From: Chlamydiota bacterium
Lineage (GTDB): Bacteria > Chlamydiota > Chlamydiia > Chlamydiales > Parachlamydiaceae
Direction of reading: 5' to 3'
Assembly: GCA_013288825.1 (NCBI GenBank)
Contig: JABDBC010000004.1
Location: forward strand, 5,649-69,648
Length of the DNA stretch: 64,000 nucleotides
Positions 1-63,885 of the stretch are shown in pieces; position 1 is the stretch's first letter, and each line of letters starts with the position of its first letter. Below the pieces are notes generated by a model that was not told where the DNA came from, did no database searches, and saw only the letters and a program-made list of their open reading frames with translations. The translations under genes were made by a program, and so were the position numbers.

Positions 1-720
1 GTTGTGAAAGGGTTCTAGAAAAAAGCCAATCAAAGTATCTTCCAGGAGGGAAAAGAAAGAAGCAACTGTTTTATCTTCTACGCCGACATCTCGAGCGATA
101 TTTGAATAATTGATTATTTTCCCATTTGATTGTGCAGCGACTTCTAAAAATTTCCGAAAAGGATCGAGGTTTCGAATAAAGTGTTCATCCCAGATTTCCT
201 CTTTTAGATAAGTATTCGCATAAGCGTGGAGAAAATGATCGCGTTCATTATCTTCATCAAAAGCAAAAAGCTCAGGTAATGAACCCCATTGGAGAGTGAA
301 ATTTAAATTAAATTGGTTACCTATCTCAAAAGATGTAAGAGGAAATAAATTGTAGACAAAGGCTCGGCCAGCCAATAGATTTGCCCCACCTCTTTTCAAT
401 TTTCGCGCAGAAGATCCAGTCATGACAAAAAGCTGTTCTGTTTCACCCATTAATCGATGAACGACATCGAGAAGTTTTGGAATTTTTTGGACTTTATCGA
501 TAACAACATGGGTTATGGATTTAGGAGCAGCTTTAACCATTTCGTATAGCGTATTAGGTTTTCTGGAAAAGCGATCTTCCTCATCAGGATCAAGGAGATC
601 ACACCAAAGTGTTTTCTCCTTTGCGAAAACATTTTTCAAAAAAGTGCTTTTACCCGTATTTCGTGCCCCAAACAGAAAAAAGCTTCTTTTTTTTGTCACA
701 TTTAGCAATCGTGGAAACAT
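1..720 (-). CDS. AAA+ ATPase, AAA_14/DUF4143 type (N-terminal 240 aa; C-terminus lies beyond window start)
   Basis: Not in the ORF track because it runs off the window. My translation of the complement from ATG at 720-718 reads MFPRLLNVTKKRSFFLFGARNTGKSTFLKNVF..HVVIDKVQKIPKLLDVV..GSSARKLKRGGANLLAGRAFVYNLFPLTSFE..NIARDVGVEDKTVASFFSLLEDTLIGFFLEPFHN and stays open to position 1. Walker A is GARNTGKST. Same architecture as the 34626..36074 product. Confidence 0.8.
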   Translation of the reverse strand, partial: MFPRLLNVTKKRSFFLFGARNTGKSTFLKNVFAKEKTLWCDLLDPDEEDRFSRKPNTLYEMVKAAPKSITHVVIDKVQKIPKLLDVVHRLMGETEQLFVMTGSSARKLKRGGANLLAGRAFVYNLFPLTSFEIGNQFNLNFTLQWGSLPELFAFDEDNERDHFLHAYANTYLKEEIWDEHFIRNLDPFRKFLEVAAQSNGKIINYSNIARDVGVEDKTVASFFSLLEDTLIGFFLEPFHN

Positions 721-783
721 ATATTCTATCCTTTAAAATTTCATTCTACTACGAAAATGCGTTTTTATGCATCAAAAAACCAG

Positions 784-834
784 TTTTTTCGTAGTCGACT
801 ACGAAAAAATCAGATAATTTCGTAGTACGCTACG
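784..834. promoter_or_regulatory. operator-like palindromes upstream of the ATPase gene (perfect 26-mer TTTTTTCGTAGTCGACTACGAAAAAA at 784-809; CGTAGTACGCTACG at 821-834)
   Basis: Read directly. Both share the CGTAG..CTACG core and lie 64-114 bp upstream of the start codon at 720. Confidence 0.4.
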
Positions 835-1471: not shown

Positions 1472-4400
1472 TTACCTCCAGGGGATTCTTTTATTGACCT
1501 TCTCCATGACGAGATAAAGGCTTGGAGTGATGAAGAGAGTAATCAGCTGGGAAAGGCAAAGCCCTCCGATGATCACTAAACCAAGAGGACGACGCGATTC
1601 TGCACTTGCGCCGAAGCCGAGAGCGATTGGCAGAGCCCCAAATATGGCTGCAACCGTTGTCATCATGATCGGCCTAAAGCGTGCTAAGGAGGCATCATAG
1701 ATCGCATCTCGGGGTGTCATCCCCCTTGTGCGTATATTATCAAGGGCAAAGTCGACCATCATAATTCCATTTTTCTTCACAATGCCAATCAAAAGAATAA
1801 TACCGAGGTAAGAGTACATCGAGAGAGGCAAGTCAAAAATCCATAAGGTTAACAACCCTCCCAAAGTAGCTGGTGGAAGGGTTGTGAGGACGGTCACAGG
1901 GTGGACGAAGCTTTCGTACAACATACCTAGAATGATATAAATGGCAAAAATCGCAATGAAGAGGAGAAATCCTGCATTTTTGATCGATTCTTGAAAGGTC
2001 TGTATTGCACCAATCGGTTGCATCTGTATGATCGGGTCTACAAATTCCTTTTGTAGCTCTTGCAGTCGGTTGAGAGCTTGACCAAGGGTGAAGCCTGAAG
2101 CGAGATTGAAATCGATCGTGACGGAAGGAAATTGATCGATGTGATTGATGCTTGAAGCCCCTAATCCCTCTTCCCATTGTGCTACAGCCCCCATGGGGAC
2201 TAATTTATTGGATACAGCCGAGCGCATCCATAAGTAGTTGAAAATATCTGAATCCATCTGATACTTATCCAACAACTCCAAAATAACATTGTATTGGTCC
2301 ACAGCGGTCTCGATTCGCGTGACATAGTTGTACGAATAACTGAACATGAAGGCTCTTTCGATATCTGCAGCCGTAATGCCAAGTGAGGAGGCTTTGTCTC
2401 TCATTATGGACACATTAATCTGCGGCGAATTGATTTCTAGATCACTGTTGACCCCTTGAAAGATGGGGTCTTTTTGCATGGCAGTGATCAACTTTTGAGC
2501 AGAGGGATAAACTTTATCAGAGAAGATGCTTTGCATGGCTAGCTGGTAGTCACCGCGGCTTTCTTGTCCTGTTGCCAAGTCTATCAAAGGTAGATTTCTT
2601 ATAAATGATTGGATGCCTGGAATTTGAGCTAAGTTCTCATTGAGTTCTTTGATGACATCTTTAATAGGGGCTCGTTGATTATGGGGTTTTAAAGCGACGA
2701 GGTTTTGACCTTTGCGATATTCGGAATACGAACTAATGGCAATGACTTTATCAACTGCTGGATGGGCTTTCAACACATCGGCGACTTGTTTCTCATATTT
2801 CCTCATTCGAATCGAAGAACCCGCTTCCATTTCTTGAGTATAGACAATAAAAAAGCCAGCATCTTCATCAGGGACGAAATCGATAGAGATAGTATAAAAA
2901 AGCCAAACGGTTAAGACCAAACAAATTAGACCCACAGCGAGGGCTACGTAGCTTCGATCGATGACTTTTGTAAGCATTCTGCCGTAGGCATCGCGCATTT
3001 TTTTGTTCATGCGCGTTGAAAATTGAAAAAGCTTGCCTTCCCGATTGTTTTGGGGAAGGAATCGGCTGCACAACATGGGAGTGAGGCTGAGGGAGATGAC
3101 TCCTGAAATAATTGTGATGGCCGATAAAGTGATAGCAAATTCGCTTAATATTTTCCCTATTAAGCCCCCCATCAGAAGCATGGGGAGGAAGACTGCGATA
3201 AGGGACAGGGTCATCGAGACAATGGTGAAGCTAATTTGTCGTGAGCCTTCCAGGGATGCTTGTATACGGTCTTCTCCCGACTCCTGTCGTCTTACAATAT
3301 TCTCAAGGACCACAATCGCATCGTCGATGATGAAGCCGACAGCCAACGTCAATGCCAAAAGAGAAAGATTATCCAAAGTGAATTTGTAGGCATCCATTAG
3401 AATGAAAGTTCCGATGACAGACATCGGCATCACAATGGAAGGGATGATGGTATCGGCTATCTTTCCTAAATATAGCGTAATGACTATCACAACAAGGATG
3501 AGGGCAATGATAAGAGTCAGTTTAACATCGTCAATTGAACTGCGGATCGATTGAGAACGATCATAAAAGACATTTAATTCCACCGCTTGCGGCAGTTCTT
3601 TTTTCAGTGTAGCCAGAAGGTCATAAATCGAGTCCGATATTGCTACTGTATTTGCTGCGGGTTCTTTTTGAATTGCTAGTAGAATGGTGGGTTCCGTTTT
3701 GTCTTTGTCGACATATTCCACATGAATTTTGTCATTCTGAAAGCTCTCAACGGTTTTACCCAAGTCTTGAATGCGCACAGGGGTGCCATTGCGATAAGCG
3801 ACAATAAGGGGATCCCATTCAGCAGCAGTGACAAGTTGTCCATCAACAGAAAGGTTAGGAGCCTCTATTAGGCCGTCTAATTGTCCTGTGGGCAGGTTGA
3901 CATTTCCTAGGGCAATTGCAGTGGCTAATTCTGATAAGGAGATATCATGAGAGACCAATTTCCCGGGATCCACTTGTATGCGGATGGCCAATGGGGAACC
4001 AAAAACAGTGACCTGAGAAACACCTGAGAGCATGGAAATGCGCTGGCCGATAAAGTTATTTGCATATGTATATAAGTCGTTGAGGCGCATTGTTTTTGAA
4101 GAGAGCCCTATGTAAATGATCGGGAGTTCAGCAGGGTTTACTTTACGATATGTCGGGGCGTAAGGAAGATTTGGAGGAAGATTTGGCGTTGCGGTAATGA
4201 TGGCTGACTGCACATCTTGAGCTGCCTCAGTCATATTTTTATCGATGTTAAATTGGATGACGATGCTGCTGCTGCCTAAAGTATTGTTTGAGCTAACAAG
4301 AGTCGCTCCAGGAATTGCCATGAGTTGCTTTTCTAGAGGAAGGGCAACAGCATGAGCCATGACATCTGGAGTCATCCCTGGAAACAAAACGCTGACAGTG

Positions 4401-4607: not shown

Positions 4608-4914
4608 CGAAGAAAAGTAACAGGATATGGAGGATCGCAAGCGGCAGGATAAGAAGGATAGCAAGCATCCTCTCGATATGAAAAAGAAATTCCAATGAGA
4701 AACGAAAAACGAAGTGTCGGAAAGAAAATAAAGGGCTTCGACTTTCTTCGCCTATTCGGTCCTTTATTTTCTTTCCGACACTTCGTTTTTCGTTTCTCAG
4801 GGGATCTTCCTAGATTGCTTGCAATCTGGGAAAACTAAAAACGTATCTCCCCCTCCCCTATCCTTCATATCCTGCCGCTTGCGATCCTCCATATCCTGTT
4901 ACTTTTTTTCTTCG
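4608..4914. repeat. nested palindromic element between the two RND genes
   Basis: Outer arms 4608-4651 / 4868-4914 and inner arms 4694-4735 / 4761-4800, plus small hairpins at 4665-4679 and 4811-4829. The right arm overlaps the last codons of the upstream RND gene. Confidence 0.85.
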
Positions 4915-7900
4915 TTGTTTCCTGTCTGAGCTTGATGCGGGTGCTTGCGCATCTTGTTACTTAAATTTTCCAATCCCAGATACAAAATTGGCGTTATAAA
5001 TAGGGTGATAAGCTGTGAGATCAATAATCCGCCAATGATGACAAGGCCAAGAGGTCGCCGTGCCTCAGCGTTTGCACCAAATCCTAAAGCAATAGGAATC
5101 ACCCCAAATACTGCAGCCATTGTAGTCATTATAACAGGCCTGAAACGCACTAAACAGGCATCGGTTATAGCTTCTCGGGATGCCATTCCTCTCAAACGAA
5201 TATTTTCGAGAGCTAAATCGACAATCATGATCCCATTTTTTTTCACAATTCCTATCAGCAAAATAATCCCTAAAAAGGAATACATAGAGAGGGGCATCCC
5301 AAACACCAATAAAACAAGAAGACCTCCAAATGTAGCTGGAGGTAACGTTGTAAGGATGGTAATGGGATGGACAAAACTCTCATATAAAATTCCTAAAATG
5401 ATGTAGATAGAAATAACAGTTATGATCAGCAGATAGCCAGAAGATTTTATAGATTCCTTAAATGTTTGTGCTGCACCGATAGATTGCGCAGAAACTCCCG
5501 GTTCTACAACTTCCTGAGTCAGTTGATTTAATCTTGTGAGTGCAGTTTCTAATGGAATCTCTGGTGCAAGATTGAAGGATATCGTTACGGCTGGAAATTG
5601 ATTGATATGGTTGACACTAGTAGCCCCCAAACCCTCATTCCATTGCATTGTCGCTGACAATGGGACCAGCTTTAAATTGAAAGGAGAGCGTATCCAAACA
5701 TTATTTAAGGTTTCTACCTGGCGTTGATATTCTGGATATAGCTCCAGAATGACGTTGTATTGATCTATCGGAGTCTGGATTTGCGATATTAAATTACCAG
5801 AGTAGCTGAGACTGAATACACTTTCAACATCAGCAGCTGTTATTCCATATTGAGCAGCTTGATCGCGTAATATACTGACATTAATTTGTGGAGTGTCGAT
5901 TTCTAAATCGCTATTGACTCCTTGGAATATAGGGTCTTCTCTCATTTTTTTAAGCAGCCTTCTAGCAGATGTATAAATGCTATCGGCATTAATGCCTTGG
6001 AGGGCAAACTGATAGGCCGCTCGGCTTTCTTGTCCTATTGCAAGATCAATTAGAGGAATGTTCTTAATAAAACATTGAACTCCCTCAATGTGGCTTAATT
6101 TTTTGTACAGATTTTGGATGATTGTGTTGATTGGAGGTCTTTCGTCTTGTGGTTTGAGATGGATATAATTCAACCCCTTCCGATATTCGTTGATGGAGCT
6201 TAAAGCTACGAAGGTATCGATGCCAGGTTCATTTTTTATTACTTCGAGAATTTGATTTTCATAATTGAGCATTCGTGCAGAGGACCCTCCCTCCATTTCT
6301 TGGGTATAGATAGCAAAAAAACCCACATCTTCATTTGGGACAAAATCGGTTGGGATATACATGAACATTAAGACAGTGGCAATTAAACTCAGCAAACCAA
6401 TAGCTAATGCTGCAAATTGATGGTCAAGGACCCTTAGAAGCATTTTGTGATAAACATTGCGCATAGATGAGTTCATCTTGTCAGAAAATTTTTCCATTCT
6501 CGATTTGCGATTGCCTTGACTATTCCTAGGGGGTATGAATTGGCTGCAAAGCATAGGTGTGAGCGTCAGGGATATAATTCCTGAAATGATTGTAATAGCT
6601 GCCAGGGTGATGGCGAACTCACTAAAGATTTTTCCGATCAATCCACCCATAAAAAGCATGGGAATAAACACAGCGAGGAGGGACATTGTCATTGAAACAA
6701 TCGTGAAGCCGATTTCACGTGAGCCTTCTAAGGATGCATCCAAAGGCGATTCTCCCATTTCCACACGTCGAATGATGTTCTCCAAGACAACCACAGCATC
6801 GTCGATGATGAAGCCCACTGCCAGTGTCAAGGCCAATACGGATAGGTTATCCAACGTGAAATTAAGCGCATACATCACTATGAAGGTTCCTATGACGGAC
6901 ATTGGAAGGACTAATGAGGGGATAATTGTATCGGCGATTTTTCCTAAGAAGACATAAATCACACCCACGACAAGGATGAGGGCAAGAAAAAGTGTAATAA
7001 TGGCATCGCTAATGGCTGTCCGAACAGGAATGGAGTGATCAAAAAGAACATGAGTCTCAATAGCAGGTGGAAGCTGATATTTCAATTCGTCTAATAATTG
7101 ATATATCCCATCAGCAATGGCTACAGTGTTAGCGCCAGGTTCTTTTTGAATTGCCAACAGGACCGTGGGTTGAGAACCTTTGGAATCGACGTATTGACCG
7201 AGAATTTTGTTGTTTTGGAAATTCTCTATAGCCCTTCCAACATCTTGAACGCGCACGGGGGTGCCATTCCGATAAGCAATGATCATCTGCTCGTAATCCC
7301 GCGCATTAACCAGTTCCCCATTTACTGAAATAATAGGAGCTTCAATGCTGCCATCCAGTTGTCCCGTTGCCAGGAACACATTTTCACTTTGAACTGCTGC
7401 TGCTACTTCATCCAGCGTGACACCGTGTGTGACGAGCTTGGCGGGATCTACTTGTATGCGGACAGCCAAAACGGAGCCGTAAGTGGTCACTTGTGCAACC
7501 CCAGCCAACATGGAAATGCGCTGTCCGATCAATGTATTTGCATATGTGTATAAGTCATATCGTGGCATCGTGGGGGAAGTTAATCCAATATAGATTACAG
7601 GTTGCTGTGCGGGATTAATTTTGCGGTAAACAGGTCCGTAAGGAATATTCGGCGGTAAAAATGGTAAGGCGGTAGAAACGGCTTCCTGAACATCTTGAGC
7701 CGCGGTTTCCATATCTTTGTCGATGTCGAACTGTAATACGATACTTGTGTTTCCCAATGTACTGTTTGAGCTGACAATGCGAAGCCCAGGAATAGCCATG
7801 AACTGCTTTTCCAGTGGAAGAGCCACTGAATTTGCCATTGTTTCTGGCAGAGATCCAGGAAAAGTGGCTTTGACATTAATGGTGGGAAAATTGACATTAG

Positions 7901-9124: not shown

Positions 9125-9164
9125 TATGTTTGCTCACTATTATCCTGAGTTTTTTGTTTAAAAT

Positions 9165-9495
9165 ACTTGATAAGGTAGCGCCCCTGCCGGGGCGAAATAC
9201 GCGTGTGGGGCGTTTACCCAGGCTTCTCTGGCCCCTCCGGGGCAGCGCTCAGCCTGGGCTAAATTGTAACAGCCCTCCGGGCCGTGTGCAATGGCTGTTG
9301 TGGGCACGATTCCGGGCTGCTTACGATTTCTTTCGGGCTATGTGCCATGTCATTTTCCCACAAAAGTTTTTGCACACGGCCCGGAGGGCTGTTACAATTT
9401 AGCCCAGGCTGAGCGTTGCCCCGGAGGGGCAAGCGAAGCCTGGGTAACGCCCCAAACATGCATCTCGCCCCGGCAGGGGCGCTACCTTATCAAGT
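9165..9495. repeat. GC-rich long-arm palindromic element (331 bp)
   Basis: Arms of about 125 nt (9165-9291 / 9369-9495) around an approximately 77-nt centre. It is strikingly GC-rich relative to its flanks. The core 9212-9291 resembles 29622-29701. Confidence 0.9.
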
Positions 9496-9503
9496 GTTTT
9501 AAT

Positions 9504-11045
9504 CTAAAGACCCTGGTTATTATCATGTAATGGTAATTGATACAATTCTTTAGGTGGACTCCTTTCCCAATGGCCGCTGGTATCTGTTAACACTCCTACT
9601 GAAAATGCCAAATTTGCCAATGCTGATGCCCATTGTGTACGGGTCAATATTTCTTGCGCTCTGGCATTGCTTAATGTTGTCAGTGAAGTCATTATGTCCA
9701 AAATTGAGGCTGTTCCCGTCTTATATTGTATCACAAAACCTCGAAACGCCCTTTCACTATATTCTACAGCTGCACGACTTGATGCCAAAGCCGCTTCCGA
9801 TGACGTGAATGCATAATAATTGGTCACGACTTGAGTCGATACTGCTGCTACCTGAACATCCAAATTGGCTAATGCCTCTTCAATTTGAGCGCGAAATTGC
9901 CGTTGTTGGTTCAAAAAGAAGAATCCTTGAAATATTGGAAAATTTACTTGAAGGGCAGCTGTTTCATTATATCCTGAAGGCTTTGTGGGGAAAATAAAAC
10001 GGACTTGATTCCAGTTGGCATTCGCGGTTAATGTGGGCATGCTATTAGAATAAGAAATTGCCAGTTGAGCTTCTTGCTGTTTAATAGCTGTGATGGCTAT
10101 GCCTAAGTCGGGTCTTCTCTTTTTTGCCAGCTCAAGCAAGCTCGAGATGTTTCCCGATATTTCTATAACTGGCAATTCTTGAGGCAGGTTTTCAACTGAA
10201 ATATCTGCATCAGGTGGCAATCCAACTGCGATCAAAATTTGTCCTAAGGAAGTTTGTTCCGACCCCTGCGCTTGCAGCCAGCTTGTTCGGAATTGCTCTA
10301 AATTCGATTGCGCTAGTAAAACATCTGTCAATGTCGCAAGACCTGCTGTACGCATCACTTGTGCTGCCTCTAATGCTATTTGGGCATCTTTAAGATCCTG
10401 CTGGTAGGCTTCAACAAGGCCCTTATTCCCTATGTAGGCAGTATACGCGTTCAACACTGATAGCATCACTTGCTGCATCGTGAAATTATGCTGCCAATTT
10501 GATGCGTAAAGAGCCTGGTGAGCAAACTCTGCTGTAGCATCTCGACCTCCGAAATCTAAAAGCAAATAGGATAGATTTAGGTTGTTTGATAGATTCGTCG
10601 TGTTAGTTTCTGTTGTAGGTGTCGTCGGGGTTGTGCCGGTGTTATTTGAGACAATCCCTGAACCAGAAGTTGCAAAGGATGAACCTCGATTCGTTTGGGC
10701 ATTTAAGCTTCCAAAATAGGTTATAGTTGGGTAATAGGGACTTAAGGATGCGTGGTAGGCATATGCTGCCGCCCGTGCAGCATTCCAGCTCACCCTTGTA
10801 GCAGGATTATTATACAAAGCCATATCGAGCAGACGTGACAAAGGCATTGTCCCCGACAAGTCGGAAATGTCAAAAAAAGGTTCTGCTGTTTTCTTCACTA
10901 TTATTGGTTTTTTATCCCATGTATTACCAATAGAAGTGGGTACATCCCCTTTGATCACTGGATCATAGAAAGGCTCACAACCACATAGTAGCAGTAATAA
11001 CAGAGCTGTTACACTATTGTGGATGTATTTCGATTTATTAGTCAT
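9504..11045 (-). CDS. outer-membrane efflux lipoprotein (TolC/NodT family)
   Basis: 513 aa. Lipobox LLLLCGC. Two OEP-type repeats with alpha-helical heptad-like segments. Located in the efflux cluster. Confidence 0.9.
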   Translation of the reverse strand: MTNKSKYIHNSVTALLLLLLCGCEPFYDPVIKGDVPTSIGNTWDKKPIIVKKTAEPFFDISDLSGTMPLSRLLDMALYNNPATRVSWNAARAAAYAYHASLSPYYPTITYFGSLNAQTNRGSSFATSGSGIVSNNTGTTPTTPTTETNTTNLSNNLNLSYLLLDFGGRDATAEFAHQALYASNWQHNFTMQQVMLSVLNAYTAYIGNKGLVEAYQQDLKDAQIALEAAQVMRTAGLATLTDVLLAQSNLEQFRTSWLQAQGSEQTSLGQILIAVGLPPDADISVENLPQELPVIEISGNISSLLELAKKRRPDLGIAITAIKQQEAQLAISYSNSMPTLTANANWNQVRFIFPTKPSGYNETAALQVNFPIFQGFFFLNQQRQFRAQIEEALANLDVQVAAVSTQVVTNYYAFTSSEAALASSRAAVEYSERAFRGFVIQYKTGTASILDIMTSLTTLSNARAQEILTRTQWASALANLAFSVGVLTDTSGHWERSPPKELYQLPLHDNNQGL

Positions 11046-12586: not shown

Positions 12587-13951
12587 TTATCCATTTGGTA
12601 ATCGACGATACCTTAAATTTCGTGTCCTCCCAATCGATTCAATCAATCCTTTTTCAATGAGCAAATTAAGCCATCTTTGTGCCGTAGCACGTGAAATCGA
12701 AAATTTATTGATCACATCTTGGGTAGTAATTTCATTTTGAGAATAGAATAGAGTTAAAATTCCTTCTTCAGCTTGGGTCTTAATTGGAAGTGATTGAGAA
12801 GAGGCCCTCGGCAAAATGCACTTTATAAAATTTGCTCCTTCTATAATTTGAGGTTTTTCAAGTCCCCAAGCTTCATAACTCTTAAAGATGTTAATGAATC
12901 CAGTTCCCATTTTTTCCACAAGCCCCATTTCTCGAAAAATCTTACAGATAGCCGGATTGCGCAAATATGTCAGTCCCTTTAACAACTGATCTTGTTCAAT
13001 TGGTCCAGAAAAACCTCCCGGGCTATATAATTCCAAGCGATCATCGTAAATAGAAATCTTAGAGGGGGCCTGAATGTGATAATTTCGATGAATCAGTAAG
13101 TTTAACAAGGCCTCTCTAAACGCAACCTCCGGTATTTCTAATTTTTCATCTCTTACAATCGCTGTAATTGAGAATGACTTTGAAAGACGACTAAGAACAA
13201 AATGATGGGCTTGTTGGAATTGATTTAAAAGAGTTCCTTCACAATCTATTGAAGCAATAGCATCCCTGCCTTCTATGCCGCGAAAATGACTTACTATTAT
13301 CATTGCTTCTGAAAGAAAAAACTGGGGGGATTTTCCAAAATTTAATATACCCGCATAAGTGGGAAAGAGTTTGGAATGCTCTTCAACAATCAAAGAATAG
13401 GAACGCAAGACGTCTTGTGTCACTTTTGCAGATGCTTGATTCTTTCTGTTATCAAGAAAATGTTGAACCAATTGATTCTCGAGGGTATCAAGGGGGGCAT
13501 TGTAAACTGGCAGTTTTTCAAAATCTATGCTATGTGATTGCCATTTTAGCTCCTCAATCATCTCAGGAGTCGCATGTACGGTGCTCCGACCCACGCGAAT
13601 ATAGGTTCCTTTCTCTTTTCCTTCTGATTTCCTAAAATAGGGTTTACTCATCCCCGATGATACGGAAATGATTAACACAGTTTTATCCCCAAACACTTGA
13701 GTAGACACTAAGGGAATGATGGGTGGATAGCAGGCCTCATAAATAGAATGATCCAATGATTCAAGAAGCTTATTTATTTGACCCTCAGCAAGTCCTACTA
13801 TTGTTCGATCATTATCGACACCGAGTATAAGCTTCCCTCCTTTTTGATTGCAAAAACCGATGATTGTTTTAATTATTTGATCATTTTTAGGAACTTCTCT
13901 TTTAAATTCCAACAAAACCGATTCTGATTCTGGATGACGAAATAAGCTCAT
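12587..13951 (-). CDS. AlbA_2 (Schlafen-like) / HATPase_c_4-type putative DNA-binding ATPase with C-terminal wHTH
   Basis: 454 aa. The N-terminus ESESVLLEFKREVPKNDQIIKTIIGFCNQKGGKLILGVDNDRTIVGL is typical of AlbA_2 (divergent AAA_4) proteins. C-terminal HTH: ITTQDVINKFSISRATAQRWLNLLIEKGLI. Confidence 0.85.
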   Translation of the reverse strand: MSLFRHPESESVLLEFKREVPKNDQIIKTIIGFCNQKGGKLILGVDNDRTIVGLAEGQINKLLESLDHSIYEACYPPIIPLVSTQVFGDKTVLIISVSSGMSKPYFRKSEGKEKGTYIRVGRSTVHATPEMIEELKWQSHSIDFEKLPVYNAPLDTLENQLVQHFLDNRKNQASAKVTQDVLRSYSLIVEEHSKLFPTYAGILNFGKSPQFFLSEAMIIVSHFRGIEGRDAIASIDCEGTLLNQFQQAHHFVLSRLSKSFSITAIVRDEKLEIPEVAFREALLNLLIHRNYHIQAPSKISIYDDRLELYSPGGFSGPIEQDQLLKGLTYLRNPAICKIFREMGLVEKMGTGFINIFKSYEAWGLEKPQIIEGANFIKCILPRASSQSLPIKTQAEEGILTLFYSQNEITTQDVINKFSISRATAQRWLNLLIEKGLIESIGRTRNLRYRRLPNG

Positions 13952-13958
13952 ACATTCT

Positions 13959-14139
13959 CCTCATTTGCCTCACATAACTTAATTATGCATCAAATGAGGC
14001 GAATGAGTCAAATAGAATGTGATATCTGCAGTTTTTTTGCCTCATTTGCCTCATATAACTAAAATTATGCATCAAATGAGGCGAATGAGGCAAATAGAAT
14101 GCGATATGTATTTCCATGAGTTTTGCCTCATTTGCCTCA
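13959..14139. repeat. 81-86 bp tandem repeat x ~2.2 with internal inverted repeat CCTCATTTG / CAAATGAGG
   Basis: CCTCATTTGCCTCA occurs at 13959, 14040 and 14126. The first copy overlaps the RBS of the AlbA_2 gene (complement AAATGAGGAGAATGTATG). Confidence 0.85.
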
Positions 14140-14169
14140 ATTGAATGATCATCAGTTGAACTTGGAATG

Positions 14170-14718
14170 CTATTCTTTCTGAAATCTCAAATTGGGAGCG
14201 ACAACGCCATCTTGACCCGCATATTGTCTTTGAGTCTTTTGCTCAATATCTGTTGAAAGTTGCGTAAAAGATAGCATGGCTAATGCAAGCCCGCGTCGTA
14301 AAATGATATCGAAGGGACCTTGGTTTTTCATTTCTAAAACAATTGTTCTAGCTTCTTCAAAGTTACCGTCGATAATCCCTGAAGTGCAATGAAGGGCTAA
14401 TCCAATTCTCGCGACTGTGCTTCGCCCTTCTACGTGGCATACAATGTTTCTTGGGACTTGGAATTTTTCCAAAGTGCTGCCTAAAATAAATTGACCCGGT
14501 TTTATTGTAAAGTCGCTTTCTGAAATGCTTATTCGATCAAATTTGACATCGCGATTAGCGTCTAAATCTACTGTCTGACCTGCATTAGGAATCAAAAGTT
14601 CGCTGCCGAGATGGAGGCGAATGCCTGCCGGACGAATGTTTGCCAGGTTAAATTCTGGAAATATTTTTATTTTTCCGGCTGTAATGTAATCTTTAATTGT
14701 TTTGTCAGAAAGTATCAT
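14170..14718 (-). CDS. dcd: dCTP deaminase (dUTPase-fold)
   Basis: MILSDKTIKDYITAGKIKI..HVEGRSTVARIGLALH..GIIDGNF..LEMKN aligns with the Dcd family (GRSSLARLGL motif region). I place the start at MILSDK (14718) rather than the track start 14742. Confidence 0.85.
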   Translation of the reverse strand: MILSDKTIKDYITAGKIKIFPEFNLANIRPAGIRLHLGSELLIPNAGQTVDLDANRDVKFDRISISESDFTIKPGQFILGSTLEKFQVPRNIVCHVEGRSTVARIGLALHCTSGIIDGNFEEARTIVLEMKNQGPFDIILRRGLALAMLSFTQLSTDIEQKTQRQYAGQDGVVAPNLRFQKE

Positions 14719-14908
14719 GCTTAAACCTAATTGAAATCTCAAGGAAATCTTCTTCTAAAAAATACATTTTAGCAAGAGAAATGAAATACTTGAAATTGCT
14801 TGCAGCAGATCGTTGCAAACTCGGCTGATTTGAAGTTCAACTTCGGATTAGCCGGATTTGATATATTTATCTACCAATATTTCAAAAAAACATCCTGACT
14901 TTTGGCAT

Positions 14909-19283: not shown

Positions 19284-20705
19284 CTACAGAAATTGTCCAA
19301 AATCGATAATTTTCGCGAAAAAGTCACTTTCGAGAACGGAATCTGTGACACCGTTCACATGTATGAGAATGGGACGAACGGAAAAGTTCTTTGGCTTTGC
19401 GATGCGATCCATTTTCTGCCGTAATTCCTTTATGACTGAGGGCCCAATCGGCTCTTTGGAAAACTTAATTTCACAGATGTAAAGCGTGTTAAACCTTGTT
19501 TGGATCAAATAATCAATCTGACATCCAGGATGTGTTTTTGTCGAGCGTTGGAAGTAGGGATTGTCATAAACCACTTCACTAGGATTCAAACCTAAAAGTT
19601 CATAAACCTTATGAAAATTGTTGAGTACCAAATTTTCAAATTGAATTCCCATTATGGTCGTCCATGCTGGGGGGGCGGCAATGCGGTTTTTTTCAATCTG
19701 TGTGCGTTGAGGTTCGATGTATCTCAGATAAAAACGGAGGTAATTGTCTCTGAGGCGAAATTTACATAAATTGGACTCTTTGCTACTTTTAATGTTCCAG
19801 GTGTGATCTCGAACGATATAACCAGTCTCTATTAGGTCTTCGAGGTAATCGCTGATCGTTCCTCCCTTTTCCAGATCGACCGCAGAGCAAATTTGCTCCA
19901 GCGTAGCGCTTCCTTCCACAAGCCGTTCTACAATTTGTTTGTAGCGTTGGGATCGCGTGGAAAATAGGTCGGAAAAAATTCGATCAAACTCTTCAACTAA
20001 CAAACCTCCCTTGCGGAAGGCTAAGTTATAGATATTGTCCTCTGCCGATAGGCCTGGATCGATTTCTTCTAGATAACGAGGAACACCACCTGTGACCGAA
20101 AGAATCTTAAACTTATCGTAAGAGGAAACAAGAGACGCTTTTTTTCTCCAAAACAGGTTACAGATGGGCAGTGGAAGCTCGTCAAGGGTCAGCTCCAATG
20201 AAATGCGTCCCATAAATCCCGTACTGCTTAGGATGTTGGTATCTATCCAGCTGGACATCGATCCACTGAGAATCATGAGGAGTTTGGGATTATTTTTAAA
20301 ATGCAAGTCCCATGCTGATTTCAACTTACCAAGAAATGTGTGGTCGAAAGAACCCATCCAATTAATTTCGTCTAGTACCACTAAAACTTGCTTCGATTGG
20401 GTTGCCTGAGAAAGATGCCAGAAGATATCCCCCCAGTCGTCAGCTTTTAAGCCTCGGATTCCCAACAGCCGCTCCATTTGCTGAACAAAATATTCTCGTT
20501 GTGTTTGTGCCGTGGTTTTTTCCGTAGGAGGAAGGCCGATAAAAATAAATGTTTTTAACCCCTTGCTAAATTCAAGAATAAGCCGACTTTTTCCAATCCG
20601 CCGCCTTCCTTTGATGACAACCAAGCTAGAGGTCTTTTTTTTGAGCAATCTATTAAGGCGATCTAACTCTTCCTTTCTTCCATAAAACGGTGTTTCGTCC
20701 ATCAC
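19284..20705 (-). CDS. ATPase, Arch_ATPase/DUF234-type
   Basis: 473 aa. Walker A GRRRIGKS, Walker B VVLDEINW. The C-terminal region resembles DUF234 (PD-(D/E)xK-like/wHTH tail) proteins. Confidence 0.85.
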   Translation of the reverse strand: MMDETPFYGRKEELDRLNRLLKKKTSSLVVIKGRRRIGKSRLILEFSKGLKTFIFIGLPPTEKTTAQTQREYFVQQMERLLGIRGLKADDWGDIFWHLSQATQSKQVLVVLDEINWMGSFDHTFLGKLKSAWDLHFKNNPKLLMILSGSMSSWIDTNILSSTGFMGRISLELTLDELPLPICNLFWRKKASLVSSYDKFKILSVTGGVPRYLEEIDPGLSAEDNIYNLAFRKGGLLVEEFDRIFSDLFSTRSQRYKQIVERLVEGSATLEQICSAVDLEKGGTISDYLEDLIETGYIVRDHTWNIKSSKESNLCKFRLRDNYLRFYLRYIEPQRTQIEKNRIAAPPAWTTIMGIQFENLVLNNFHKVYELLGLNPSEVVYDNPYFQRSTKTHPGCQIDYLIQTRFNTLYICEIKFSKEPIGPSVIKELRQKMDRIAKPKNFSVRPILIHVNGVTDSVLESDFFAKIIDFGQFL

Positions 20706-20745
20706 ATGACCCCTTCTTTGATATCTTCTACTATAGCATAATCAC

Positions 20746-20811
20746 ATCATGGAATCAAGAAAAGTTAATTCCATGATGAAATTTATCGGTATGAATTCTC
20801 ATCATGGAATG
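20746..20811. promoter_or_regulatory. CATCATGGAAT / ATTCCATGATG / CATCATGGAAT operator-like repeats
   Basis: Copies at 20746-20756, 20769-20779 (inverted) and 20801-20811, 40-105 bp upstream of the ATPase start and in the divergent region towards higA. Confidence 0.45.
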
Positions 20812-20907: not shown

Positions 20908-21207
20908 ATGAGTAATAAAATGCGTCCTATTCACCCCGGTGAAGTACTAAAAGACGAACTAGATGAACTCGGATTTTCAGCCAGTGCTTTTGCAAAGCAG
21001 CTAGCTGTGCCTGTCAATCGTGTGACTTCTATTTTGAATGGAACGAGGGCTGTAACCGCTGATACTGCACTTCGGTTAGCATGTTTCTTTGGAACTTCTG
21101 CTGAATTTTGGCTGAATTTGCAATCATCTTATAATTTGAAAATTACTATGCAACAGCAAGGCAAAAAGATAAGAAAAGAAGTGCATCCTCATAGAGAAGC
21201 GGCATAA
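20908..21207 (+). CDS. higA: HigA-family antitoxin (XRE HTH)
   Basis: MRPIHPGEVLKDELDELGFSASAFAKQLAVPVNRVTSILNGTRAVTADTALRLACFFGTSAEFWLNLQ is the canonical HigA/VapI pattern. Confidence 0.85.
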   Translation: MSNKMRPIHPGEVLKDELDELGFSASAFAKQLAVPVNRVTSILNGTRAVTADTALRLACFFGTSAEFWLNLQSSYNLKITMQQQGKKIRKEVHPHREAA

Positions 21208-21212
21208 TATAG

Positions 21213-21467
21213 TCATTTAGAAATTATCCACTCCCTCATCAACTGCTTTATTTTTGTTTGATAGTGAGTTCCCTCAAGATTTGCCTTCTGTTTAAAAGCA
21301 TTGAGAAGCGAAGGCTCTATTTTCAAGCTAATGAGTTGACACTTTTCAGGAGTTTTTGCGACAAGAGCGCGGTAATTTTCAAGAAATTCAATGATTTGAT
21401 CTGGCGTTAAGCTTGCACACCGCTCAAGATACTCTTTAGTGAAGTACTGAATTGTTTTTCTTTTCAT
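21213..21467 (-). CDS. RHH/CopG-like small protein (BrnA-type antitoxin-like)
   Basis: 84 aa. The C-terminal segment ISLKIEPSLLNAFKQKANLEGTHYQTKIKQLMREWI fits a ribbon-helix-helix. Overlaps the upstream gene by 4 bp (ATGA). Confidence 0.65.
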   Translation of the reverse strand: MKRKTIQYFTKEYLERCASLTPDQIIEFLENYRALVAKTPEKCQLISLKIEPSLLNAFKQKANLEGTHYQTKIKQLMREWIISK

Positions 21468-21922
21468 AAACTCTCCAAGGCCTTTACATCCTCTAAGTCT
21501 TGTTGACGTCCCGATGCTCTTTTCATTGCAATCAGGTCTTTTAGAGATAACACTCTAATTTTGCCAGAAGAAGTGCTGATCATTTTGGTGTGTGCGCTCT
21601 TAAGATCATAATTGATGATAATATCGACTTGATTAATTGGATTTTTAGGATCGTAGAAATTCCATGCAATTAGATTCCGGTTCTGTATATATTCATCTCT
21701 AAAGTGAAACAGGCTACTCGAATCGATAGGGATAAGGGAAACAAGCCCAAGCTCCTTTAAGACCTTCTCCGCATTTTCGAGATTTTTCAGTGTCCAATGG
21801 ATTGCAATATCGACATCCACAGTTCCTCTCGCCGCACCATGTAGGGCAACAGCATATCCCCCAACAATGGCATATGGAATTTTGGCATTATTAAGAGCGC
21901 TGCAAACATCATGAATGAACAT
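21464..21922 (-). CDS. nucleotidyltransferase-fold protein (AbiEii/DUF6036-like)
   Basis: MFIHDVCSALNNAKIPYAIVGGYAVALHGAARGTVDVDIAI carries the GG..(n)DxD pattern of minimal NTases. Start placed at MFIHD. Confidence 0.75.
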   Translation of the reverse strand: MFIHDVCSALNNAKIPYAIVGGYAVALHGAARGTVDVDIAIHWTLKNLENAEKVLKELGLVSLIPIDSSSLFHFRDEYIQNRNLIAWNFYDPKNPINQVDIIINYDLKSAHTKMISTSSGKIRVLSLKDLIAMKRASGRQQDLEDVKALESL

Positions 21923-22096
21923 ATGAATCTCTCGTTGGTATATACCGGTATATACCACATTTGGATTTTAGAAGTCAATATAAGTGCTACAATTCCCTGA
22001 ACATGACCAACTTGGCAGGAATGTTTGAAGTCTAATCAATCCTAGCATTCCGATACGCATCAGGCTAAGGTATGAAATTTCTCAGTAAAAAATTCA

Positions 22097-24513: not shown

Positions 24514-24740
24514 TGCTTCGGTTGAGTAGGGGGCCTTGAGGGCCTCCTACGGTTGAACTATGGAAACTTCAGTGAGTGTTTTTGGATGCCCTTCTTCATC
24601 TAACACAAATTTTCCCCTTACCTCAATCAAGTCTTTTCGACTTTCCAAAATGGAGCCTTCTATTTCTGGACAATAGTAACATAGAGGCTAAAACAAAGCC
24701 TAAAAAAGTTCAAAATTCACCATAAAATCGATTAACTCTT

Positions 24741-24910
24741 AGGGATCGTCAAAAAATAACCTATACAACTCCATAGGAGAAATTGCGTCTTAGCTCTCGT
24801 AAAATTACTTCTGAACAACCCCTGTTGTGGGCTGTTCAGAAGTAATTTTACGAGAGCTAAGACGCAATTTCTCCTATGGAGTTGTATAGGTTATTTTTTG
24901 ACGATCCCTT
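24741..24910. repeat. 170-bp near-perfect palindrome (arms ~78 nt)
   Basis: AGGGATCGTCAAAAAATAACCTATACAACTCCATAGGAGAAATTGCGTCTTAGCTCTCGTAAAATTACTTCTGAACA pairs with its complement ending at 24910. Read directly. Confidence 0.9.
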
Positions 24911-25089
24911 ATCTTCTAGAGATCTTATTGTCTCTGTCAAGACAAATATCTGGTGTCCAGGATGACAAGTTCAATTTTGCATATTTATAAGGCCTACAGA
25001 ACTATTGACAATAACTTATTAAAAAAGTTAAAATCTTTATACTTTTACATACAATCTTTATTTAAAGTAATAATTTATTTTGGATCTTT

Positions 25090-28670: not shown

Positions 28671-28810
28671 AAAACTCCATAATTTATATTAACAATAATA
28701 TTATTATAAAATATATGAAATATAAAAGTCAAATAAAAAATACTATAATATATAATATATTGATGGAATTTAATATATGATTTAATTACACAAGATACAA
28801 TACACTTTAT

Positions 28811-63393: not shown

Positions 63394-63765
63394 ATGAAAT
63401 TGAATAATAAAAATCGAATTGCATTAGTCACAGGAGCTTCATCAGGCATTGGAGAAGCAATTTCGCGAGAACTTATCAAACGAGGTTGGCTTGTAATTGG
63501 TATTGCAAGATCTTCCAATAAGCTTTCCGAGATAAGAAAAGAGTTACGAGACGCTTTTATTCCCTTTACCTGTGATGTGTCTCAAAAGAGAAACATAGAA
63601 GAAACATCTCAACAGATTCGTGAAATGGGTCTTTGTCCTTCTTTATTTTTTCTTAATGCCGGTATTGCTGGTGAGTCCGTTATTGAAAATCCCAATCGAT
63701 TTGATCTCAACATTCATGAAAAGATTATGCAAGTGAACTACTTTGGTGTTTTCTCCTGCACATAA
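63394..63765 (+). pseudogene. short-chain dehydrogenase/reductase, truncated after ~120 aa
   Basis: IALVTGASSGIGEAISRELIKRGWLVIGIARS (TGxxxGxG) and NAGI are present. The frame ends right after VNYFGV, where the tandem repeat begins. The catalytic YxxxK region is missing. Confidence 0.75.
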
Positions 63766-63885
63766 CTTACATATACATATTATGTGCATCTTATCATTTA
63801 AGTCAAGAATGCACATAACTTACATATACGTATTATGTGCATCTTATCATTTAAGTCAAGATTCACATAACACTTATCTGATGTG
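63758..63885. repeat. 53-bp tandem repeat x ~2.3 with internal inverted repeat GCACATAA..TTATGTGC
   Basis: Units start at 63758, 63811 and 63864 (partial). The array begins exactly where SDR homology stops. Confidence 0.85.

Follow-up and report, generated by a model that had tools for sequence, protein, structure and literature searches.

The window analysed here is a stretch of 64 kb from contig JABDBC010000004.1 of a bacterium of the Parachlamydiaceae (Chlamydiota). Between the dCTP deaminase gene dcd (14170..14742, minus strand; TIGR02274) and a gene encoding a prokaryotic Schlafen protein (12587..13951, minus strand) lies a spacer of 218 bp (13952-14169) that is occupied by a repeat array. 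Read on the gene strand (i.e. the minus strand), the segment 13955-14139 contains 12 9-mers related to TGAGGCAAA, which are grouped in five clusters of alternating orientation with a spacing of about 41 bp. The spacer holds 69 repeated 9-mer pairs, compared with a mean of 0.54 (maximum 3) in shuffled sequences, so the array is real and far above chance. The window had been read before from its letters alone, and this original prediction listed seven repeat sets. All seven are present, either exactly where it had placed them or a few bases off, and every array does differ from the others, as it had claimed: no sequence is common to any two of them. The window is also rich in long intergenic palindromes; a palindrome beside a gene is therefore, taken alone, uninformative here.

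The clusters are described in the direction of the gene, all on the minus strand. The distal box A (14122..14139) consists of two exact forward copies, TGAGGCAAA TGAGGCAAA (14131-14139 and 14122-14130), and corresponds to box A of the orthologues. The distal box B is inverted and comprises TTTGCCTCA (14086-14094) and TTCGCCTCA (14077-14085), followed by a degenerate TTTGATGCA (14068-14076). Box A' (14036..14053) again contains forward TGAGGCAAA TGAGGCAAA (14045-14053 and 14036-14044), and it serves both units, as box C for the distal and as box A for the proximal one. The proximal box B' is inverted, with TTTGACTCA (14004-14012), TTCGCCTCA (13995-14003), and a degenerate TTTGATGCA (13986-13994). 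Box C (13955..13972), finally, contains forward TGAGGCAAA (13964-13972) and TGAGGAGAA (13955-13963). Relative to the start codon, boxes B' and C occupy the same registers as their counterparts in the orthologues (-61/-52 and -21/-12).

Scanning with the sigma-70 consensus revealed two sigma-70-like promoters on the minus strand within the array: a proximal one, TTGACT-18-CATAAT (13982..14011), whose -10 element is kept in orthologues (CATAAT, TACAAT, or TATAAT), and a distal one, TTGCCT-18-CATAAT (14064..14093), which arose by tandem duplication. Each -35 element sits within an inverted box, the distal one in box B and the proximal one in box B'. Box B abuts the -10 element, and box C lies between the -10 element and the ATG, over the predicted region of transcript start. 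An overlap of the first unit with the ribosome-binding site had been predicted and is indeed found: the Shine-Dalgarno sequence GGAG (13957-13960) is located inside the last 9-mer, TGAGGAGAA, and the ATG (13949-13951) follows 5 nt further on. Judging from this arrangement and from its conservation, 13955-14139 is probably the promoter-operator region of the adjacent Schlafen-type gene, tandemly duplicated in this window. The best reading is self-repression via a cognate operator, with binding of the protein to its own array as a prediction.

The product of 12587..13951 has 454 amino acids. It contains an AlbA_2 domain (PF04326, residues 10-127; E = 1.4e-19, 71 bits at a cut-off of 25.3), in which the Ex4(E/D)xK motif, the catalytic motif of Schlafen tRNases according to PMC13056530, is intact (E10-SVLL-E15-F-K17). 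Further downstream, HATPase_c_4 was detected at residues 297-379 (E = 2.5e-19, 69.5 bits at a cut-off of 26), together with a match to PDB entry 3lmm (E = 1e-14). For residues 392-450, several winged-helix Pfam families matched, all below their cut-offs. A profile built from 12 C-termini and compared with the PDB matched AdcR/MarR, Lrs14, the helix-turn-helix (HTH) of CAP, and the C-terminus of 3lmm. Within the winged helix (residues ~392-450), SRATAQRWLN is aligned with the helix by which MarR/AdcR, Lrs14, and CAP read DNA. The gene thus encodes a prokaryotic Schlafen of the HisKinase-HTH class, with all four domains and motifs of the class found by Pfam, the catalytic motif, the C-terminal profile, and the class definition of PMC13056530. 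PADLOC gave only partial matches, to the Schlafen parts of pAgo and SIR2 proteins, and is without a model for the whole Schlafen-GHKL-HTH protein. The closest relatives of the protein are all from uncultured environmental chlamydiae (Parachlamydiaceae, Rhabdochlamydia, and others).

According to the study that defines it, the Slfn-HisKinase-HTH class accounts for 19.2% of 5,930 prokaryotic Schlafens; it is not among the classes assayed there (Nat Microbiol 2026, PMC13056530). The domain order of the class, Slfn/AlbA_2, GHKL/HATPase-like, and HTH, is that of the window protein, and the likeness extends to gene neighbourhood, as orthologues of the window gene adjoin other defence-candidate genes. 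A full-text search of the study located the term HTH only twice, both times with regard to domain composition, and the passages retrieved do not mention an operator. The study proposes that the fused domains of prokaryotic Schlafens are likely sensors; in contrast, the evidence presented here points to an HTH that would read the promoter of its own gene.

To compare the array among relatives, one genome per species was scanned, giving 36 orthologous or paralogous loci (labelled L001 etc.), and the comparison sequences are mostly metagenome-assembled genomes (MAGs). About 25 loci display the same layout in the 125 nt before the ATG, namely a forward pair at -102/-93, an inverted pair at -61/-52, and a forward pair at -21/-12. 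Between the inverted pair and the last forward pair, the orthologues carry TTTGAxGCATAAT. In the alignment of upstream regions, conservation begins at box A, with none further upstream, and the spacer between boxes A and B is poorly conserved. Similarly, blastn of the window against 14 orthologues yielded 73-87% identity from 14054 (box A) to 12587 (stop codon), with the block starting at 14054 in most of the 14 comparisons. Clusters are not fixed in size and contain between 2 and at least 4 9-mers: forward copies number at least four in L010, compared with two inverted ones, L029 has three inverted copies, and L005 has four copies in box C.

The ancestral unit comprises about 103 bp with three 9-mer clusters: two forward copies in box A, two or three inverted ones in box B, and two forward ones in box C. 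From one cluster to the next, the starts are displaced by 41 and 40 bp, or roughly four helical turns. In the window, blastn aligned the distal unit (14146-14034) to the same ~105 nt a second time, so the conserved state is one unit. The tandem units seen in front of the AlbA_2 gene by the original prediction are hence a property of the window copy, which consists of two 82-bp units, each with one forward and one inverted cluster and with a 45-nt core that is 96% identical between the two, and of a third partial unit; the orthologues have one unit. A tandem duplication also occurs in L027. The duplication would be explained by unequal exchange between boxes A and C, which form direct repeats at a distance of 81 bp; such an exchange would generate an extra A-B unit and the second promoter. 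For the window copy, the duplication would thereby have added a second promoter and two more clusters.

The pairing potential of such an array raises the question of whether the boxes work as RNA instead, with the GAGG of forward boxes and the CCUC of inverted boxes forming alternative leader hairpins that, in the manner of an attenuator or a translational switch, terminate transcripts running on from dcd or mask the ribosome-binding site. Folding of the 206-nt array gave -68.4 kcal/mol (z = -7.3); in the structure of minimum energy, box B' is paired with box C, and the Shine-Dalgarno sequence is occluded. In the window only, transcripts from the distal promoter would carry A', B', and C and could choose between A':B' and B':C. 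Yet such a fold is expected of any palindromic DNA array, and in the single-unit orthologues the -35 element lies inside box B, so that the transcript would contain box C only. The copy numbers of the supposed arms are unequal in L010, L029, and L005, and the motifs of paralogues, e.g. TGAAACAAT, are unrelated to the Shine-Dalgarno sequence. An RNA switch is thus highly improbable in our assessment, and an effect at the RNA level may be limited to the distal-promoter transcripts of this window. A leader with an intrinsic terminator or attenuator was rejected as well: the promoter is within the array, the region 13800-14300 contains no terminator-like site with a T run, and the array has no match in Rfam.

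The comparison of paralogues revealed that the motif changes together with the protein. Paralogues with 49-56% protein identity retain the layout and the -10 element (TACAAT, TATAAT), and all of their boxes are swapped for another 9-mer. These 9-mers are TGAAACAAT (L023 and L030), TGAGTCATA (L025 and L027), TGAGTCGAG (L026), TGAGGTATA (L028), TGAATCAAT (L001b), and TTGGGTCGA (L009b). When the commonest 9-mer was determined de novo for each upstream region, it was present in 5.7 copies on average, compared with 2.2 in shuffled sequences. Scores of the de novo 9-mer were about 1 on the upstream regions of other classes, compared with 4.8 within the main class. Paralogues with differing motifs also reside side by side: L020 and L023 are in one MAG (isolate OFTM179), and L001/L001b and L009/L009b each share one locus. 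The recognition helix is SRATAQRWLN in most members of the TGAGGCAAA class, with the variants SRTTAQRWLN (L001) and SRATAQRWLQ (L022). It differs from that of the main class in most classes with other motifs, where TRSTAGRKIN, SRATAGRRLF, PRATIGRKLT, PRATATRRLK, SRSTASRILN, and PRTSAGRALN were found.

The motif is also largely private to the position in front of the gene. With up to two mismatches allowed, the 191 kb surrounding the orthologues contain 49 occurrences of the 18-mer pair, all of them located within 260 nt upstream of the gene. Within the 64-kb window, the 18-mer pair is confined to the array at 13955-14139. In metagenomes, the matches listed for the 18-mer were mostly one-orientation matches in unrelated DNA, which makes this search no clean test for arrays without genes. 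Among these listed matches, about eight had both orientations, four of them with a Schlafen gene in place, and similar boxes without a Schlafen gene were seen in L092, L047, and L135. Repeats of other sequence precede solitary Schlafen homologues on plasmids of more distant hosts. On the Lactobacillus iners plasmid pC0094A1 (L160), the homologue is preceded by ~84-bp tandem units with three 11-mers AATCGTGAGTT each, and in Butyrivibrio pCY360 (L164) by seven copies of TTGAAGT, which are spaced by 11-12 bp and reach the ribosome-binding site. The family thus has private repeat arrays well beyond the chlamydiae. Most of the plasmid homologues examined have the Ex4(E/D)xK pattern, and two streptococcal ones are without it.

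Several observations weigh against an operator read by the adjacent protein. The one-base motif variants do not follow the recognition helix closely: in L017 (TGAGTCAAA) the helix is identical to that of the main class, and in L019 (a 77% orthologue; TGATGCAAA) and L020 (TGAGGCGAA) it differs at the last residue only (N to T and N to L, respectively). Motif and protein both diverge over time, so part of their co-variation reflects shared ancestry. The orthologues L014 and L021 retain box C alone, and Schlafen homologues located within operons in other phyla are without an array. At ~680-760 of L092, TGAGGCAAA-type boxes A and B stand with the usual spacing before an unrelated gene, whose product starts with MDSIERRIFFLCQD; these boxes may be an operator that was either left behind or captured. 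Furthermore, the promoters were scanned with the sigma-70 consensus, from which chlamydial promoters may depart. The repeat period of 9 bp is shorter than one helical turn, which makes the binding stoichiometry ambiguous, and the sign of the regulation is read solely from the overlap of operator and promoter.

Some of these points would suit a different binding partner, i.e. a host global regulator or a protein encoded elsewhere. Binding of the cis-encoded protein to the array is a prediction, the boxes of L092 precede a different gene, and L014 and L021 are without boxes A and B. Against this, the motif tracks the lineage of the adjacent protein, co-resident paralogues differ in their motifs, and the motif is restricted to the array or the gene's upstream region both in the orthologous loci and in the window. 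In addition, the genes stand in unrelated contexts, with no constant neighbour to supply such a factor. We consider binding by another protein very unlikely. The operator assignment instead shares its main traits with autoregulated HTH repressors: the repeated motif lies over the gene's own core promoter, and the operator is kept with the gene and changes with the DNA-binding domain, the latter being partly confounded by common descent.

In the mechanism that we propose, the C-terminal winged helix of the Schlafen protein would bind the 9-mers in its own promoter. RNA polymerase would be blocked once boxes B and C are occupied, which would result in negative autoregulation of a potentially toxic nuclease. 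As the clusters are about four helical turns apart, binding may be cooperative on one face of the DNA. From the 9-bp period and the variable copy number, our guess is that one winged helix binds per 9-mer. The retention of the 9-mers in front of this gene in dozens of genomes, and their joint change with its DNA-binding domain, suggest that a compact accessory gene, which spreads horizontally, regulates itself in an ordinary way.

An HTH protein with an operator over its own promoter is of a familiar kind. Overlap with the -35 and -10 elements and the transcript start is the usual geometry of autorepression, and MarR proteins, which are small dimers, recognise one or two palindromes. The window protein resembles the MarR/AdcR autorepressors in its C-terminal winged helix and in the position of the repeats over the -35/-10 elements and the transcript start. 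Unlike in MarR, the winged helix here forms the C-terminal end of a nuclease-ATPase of 454 aa, and the 9-bp sites come as direct pairs, which make up three phased clusters with alternating orientation. A second parallel is offered by iteron initiators such as RepA of pPS10 and RepE of F, in which a winged-helix gene also stands beside direct and inverted copies of a motif, with the inverted ones over its own promoter, and in which co-evolution of motif and protein likewise gives paralogue specificity. In contrast to these, the window locus is chromosomal and is without replication function, AT-rich unwinding region, or homology to Rep, and its repeats measure 9 bp; plasmid iterons have 17-22 bp. 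An iteron-controlled replicon was rejected, as the protein is a Schlafen/GHKL/winged-helix protein and not a Rep, and the 9-mer pairs alternate in orientation.

The iteron-like arrangement might nevertheless serve self-recognition or tethering, such that the nuclease-ATPase loads on its own iterons or forms oligomers along them, much as Orc1/Cdc6 does on origin boxes or plasmid Rep proteins do on iterons, and is kept inactive or licensed there until a trigger arrives. The direct 9-mer pairs with 2 to at least 4 copies per cluster and the phasing of clusters at ~41 bp would fit such loading, as would the GHKL-type ATPase domain of the Schlafen protein and the resemblance in fold of the DUF234-type family (see below) to Orc1/Cdc6 and subunits of the origin recognition complex (ORC). 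The layout is, however, the sole evidence for tethering; a single chromosomal site could hold few molecules at most, and repression explains the overlap with the -35 element, the -10 element, and the ribosome-binding site more simply. Tethering therefore appears quite unlikely, and self-repression is preferred.

Two further genes of the window show a comparable arrangement. The first is an ATPase_2/DUF234-type AAA+ gene (19284..20705, minus strand), which matches the PADLOC candidate PDC-S27 (E = 3e-80). It is preceded by three operator-like sites on the minus strand (20745..20810): ATTCCATGATG (20800-20810), an inverted CATCATGGAAT (20768-20778), and again ATTCCATGATG (20745-20755). The last site overlaps the -35 element TTGATT (20753-20758) and runs into the spacer before the -10 element TATAGT (20730-20735). 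Orthologues with 67-91% identity (L170-L175) in five unrelated contexts keep the three sites, in the order ATTCCATGATG, ~21 nt, CATCATGGAAT, TTTTCTTG, ATTCCATGATG, and then TGCTATAGT. Here, too, the motif drifts with the protein, reading CATGAGG at 78% identity and CGTGAG at 67%. In the structural model (predicted local distance difference test score, pLDDT, 87.6), a winged helix is predicted at residues 252-318, between the AAA+ domain and a nuclease-like C-terminal domain. The protein sequence found no match in the PDB, but a fold search with the model indicated resemblance to 2qen, Orc1/Cdc6 (E = 1e-9 to 1e-7), ORC subunits, and NB-ARC modules of NLR proteins. In archaea, origin recognition boxes adjoin the Orc1/Cdc6 gene itself. 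The DUF234-type protein likewise combines AAA+ and winged-helix domains, with cognate inverted repeats immediately upstream of its gene. It differs in its extra nuclease-like C-terminal domain and in the position of the sites over the -35 element and the promoter spacer, and there is no sign of an origin.

The second gene encodes an AAA_14/DUF4143 protein. Its 5' part is located at 1..720 (minus strand), the full protein has 389 aa (P0241), and PADLOC assigns it to PDC-S01 (E = 7e-34). Its predicted operator (743..834, minus strand) consists of CGTAGCGTACTACG (821-834), TTCGTAGTCGACTACGAA (788-805), and a half-site TTCGTAGTAGAAT (743-755) with the -10-like TAGAAT. In orthologues with 79-89% identity (L176 and L178), two TTCGTAGnnnnCTACGAA palindromes (TTCGTAG..CTACGAA) and the half-site over the -10 element are kept. 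A second repeat at 858-1027 (2.3 copies of a 70-bp tandem unit that is packed with AACATGTT palindromes) had been attributed to the same gene. It is absent upstream of L176 and L178, and hence it belongs to something other than the AAA_14/DUF4143 gene. The structural model suggests a central winged helix (residues ~185-254) followed by a PD-(D/E)XK-like domain, which is in line with how PMC3424549 classifies DUF4143 and DUF234. A C-terminal winged helix had been expected for all three ATPase families; this is true of the Schlafen protein, while in the models of both AAA+ proteins the winged helix is central and a nuclease-like domain comes after it.

The comparison of relatives supports the view that the same operator logic applies to the DUF234-type (20745-20810) and AAA_14/DUF4143 (743-834) genes. 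The proposal that each paralogue has a cognate array thus fits three families (Schlafen, DUF234-type, and AAA_14/DUF4143), yet it does not extend to every copy: a second full-length AAA_14/DUF4143 gene (34626..36074, minus strand) has no evident array, and the spacer upstream of it contains only a palindrome of the GTCCATTAC type. PDC-S27 and PDC-S01 are candidates defined by enrichment in defence islands, and the literature searched describes neither a function nor a regulation for them.

It had further been suggested that array and gene together behave as an insertion cassette. This idea is half supported by the sequences compared. Box A and the stop codon delimit the conserved block, the window has no neighbours in common with any of the 36 loci, and five loci carry flanking repeats; on the other side, the arrays lie inside these repeats, the window copy is without repeats, and no recombinase is linked. 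Frequently, a neighbouring gene in these loci belongs to one of the other two families or is itself a second Schlafen paralogue. The best relatives of the three accessory proteins have about 92%, 91%, and 90% identity; for the housekeeping gene dcd, the best non-self homologue in a collection of 5.8 billion proteins has 83%. This difference (89-92% versus 83%) points to gene exchange among environmental chlamydiae. The closest homologues of dcd on long contigs are 80% identical and have entirely different neighbours. No empty orthologous site was found around them, since gene order next to dcd is no longer kept even at 80% identity.

Two kinds of sequence adjoin the modules. The 3' end of tRNA-Ser(GGA) abuts the Schlafen module in L005, L007, L020, and L032, and L008 retains a fragment of that tRNA; its recurrence in unrelated chlamydial genomes suggests a shared island hot spot. 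In L008, L012, L024, L025, and L178, locus-specific direct repeats of 22-55 nt flank the modules. In L012, where the copies are at 3743-3797 and 5366-5420, the left one includes the upstream gene's terminator, and the right one follows the stop codon with no base in between. For L178, with copies at about -152 and +29 relative to the gene, the upstream gene's stop codon is part of the repeat. The flanking repeats look as if they had been left by insertion with target duplication; they differ between loci and so represent target sequence rather than element sequence. At the window copy, neither a flanking direct repeat of at least 10 nt nor a tRNA was found. Among the 40 open reading frames (ORFs) of the window scanned with Pfam (small ORFs in part), no integrase, recombinase, or transposase was detected, and base composition does not set the gene apart from its surroundings.

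If the repeats served mobility and not regulation, the arrays would be recombination or insertion sites of a mobile gene cassette, comparable to integron attC sites or transposon ends. A conserved block made up of exactly operator and gene would agree with this, as would the lack of synteny among the 36 loci, the higher identity of the accessory proteins (~89-92%) than of the best non-self dcd (83%), the five modules between direct repeats, and those modules that abut the 3' end of tRNA-Ser(GGA). The positions of the arrays argue otherwise. They are well inside the flanking repeats (~100 nt separate the left repeat from box A in L012), stand on one side of the gene only, and contain the promoter; moreover, the flanking repeats are locus-specific, none is present at the window copy, and the ORFs scanned include no integrase or transposase. 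An insertion-site role of the arrays is accordingly scarcely probable. In integrons, the recombination site attC is an imperfect palindrome and follows a promoterless gene at its 3' end. Integron cassettes and integrase-less att islets resemble the present genes in being single-gene units found in many contexts, some with direct repeats or a tRNA 3' end. They differ in that the palindromic array here is 5' of the gene and contains promoter hexamers, homology stops at the stop codon without a conserved 3' element, the flanking repeats are locus-specific, and no linked integrase was found among the scanned ORFs.

Combining these ideas, the three families could be single-gene immune cassettes that spread among chlamydiae as operator plus gene. 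Their insertion would leave target duplications of 22-55 nt, and the winged helix together with the private iterons would tether or license the nuclease-ATPase at its own locus and insulate co-resident paralogues. We regard this combination as doubtful; if true, it would represent a new mode of controlling and mobilising single-gene defence effectors. Self-repression by the gene's own product is the reading that we retain. Searches of the literature, including by Pfam and COG identifiers, returned no paper on the regulation of these families. Relative to the literature searched, the putative self-operator would be new for the Schlafen-HisKinase-HTH class and for the PDC-S01/PDC-S27 ATPases, as would the phased three-cluster layout and the private motifs that appear to separate co-resident paralogues. 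If each family reads a private operator, the role of the HTH is directly testable, given a DNA site defined at the base level, natural specificity variants, and co-resident paralogues as controls. Tests that use the native promoter bring the operator along, and expression would thus depend on the protein itself. Schlafen-HisKinase-HTH proteins reportedly represent about one fifth of prokaryotic Schlafens (PMC13056530), and the AAA_14/DUF4143 and DUF234 ATPases are widespread defence-island candidates. The main use of the operators would accordingly be a precise experimental handle on three large uncharacterised nuclease-NTPase families.

Apart from the intact genes, the window contains the remnant of a second Schlafen paralogue (51836..52077, minus strand), which was identified by tblastn, ORFs, and repeats. 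Only the coding end of the winged helix (51836-52006) is left, in a 42-aa ORF (MATLDLPRSTAGRRLA...) with the recognition helix PRSTAGRRLA, which adds one more case to the comparison of helices and motifs. Beside it lies a perfect palindrome of the AAATGAGTCATTT type with 16-nt arms, TTGAAATGACTCATTT and AAATGAGTCATTTCAA (52037-52077).

Very long intergenic palindromes were found at 1076-1361, 4609-4910, 9138-9522, 24719-24931, 28810-28991, 29540-29917, and 36226-36338, with arms of 46-178 nt that are 78-96% complementary. They fall into at least two families: a 10-bp-periodic GTCCATTAC type (1361-1450, 28810-28991, and 36226-36338) and a CCCCGGAGGGG...GCGAAGCCTGGGTAAC type (9419-9473, 29598-29652, and 29805-29859). 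None of the long palindromes matched Rfam; possibly, they are genome-wide palindromic elements that act as bidirectional terminators. A direct repeat of 73 nt (38045-38117 and 40884-40956) is present in two copies that are 93% identical and 2.8 kb apart, one within a DUF7790 gene on the opposite strand and the other at the start of the ORF 40913..41215. At 63757-63871, 53-bp tandem units (2.2 copies, 98% identical) with a palindrome in each begin where a truncated ORF for a short-chain dehydrogenase (63394..63765) ends. Finally, the stretch 20909-21958, between the DUF234-type ATPase gene and an XRE gene, comprises an HTH antitoxin-like ORF (20909..21208, plus strand) and, on the opposite strand, a DUF6036 nucleotidyltransferase gene (21464..21958) with a short upstream ORF, and resembles an accessory-gene islet.

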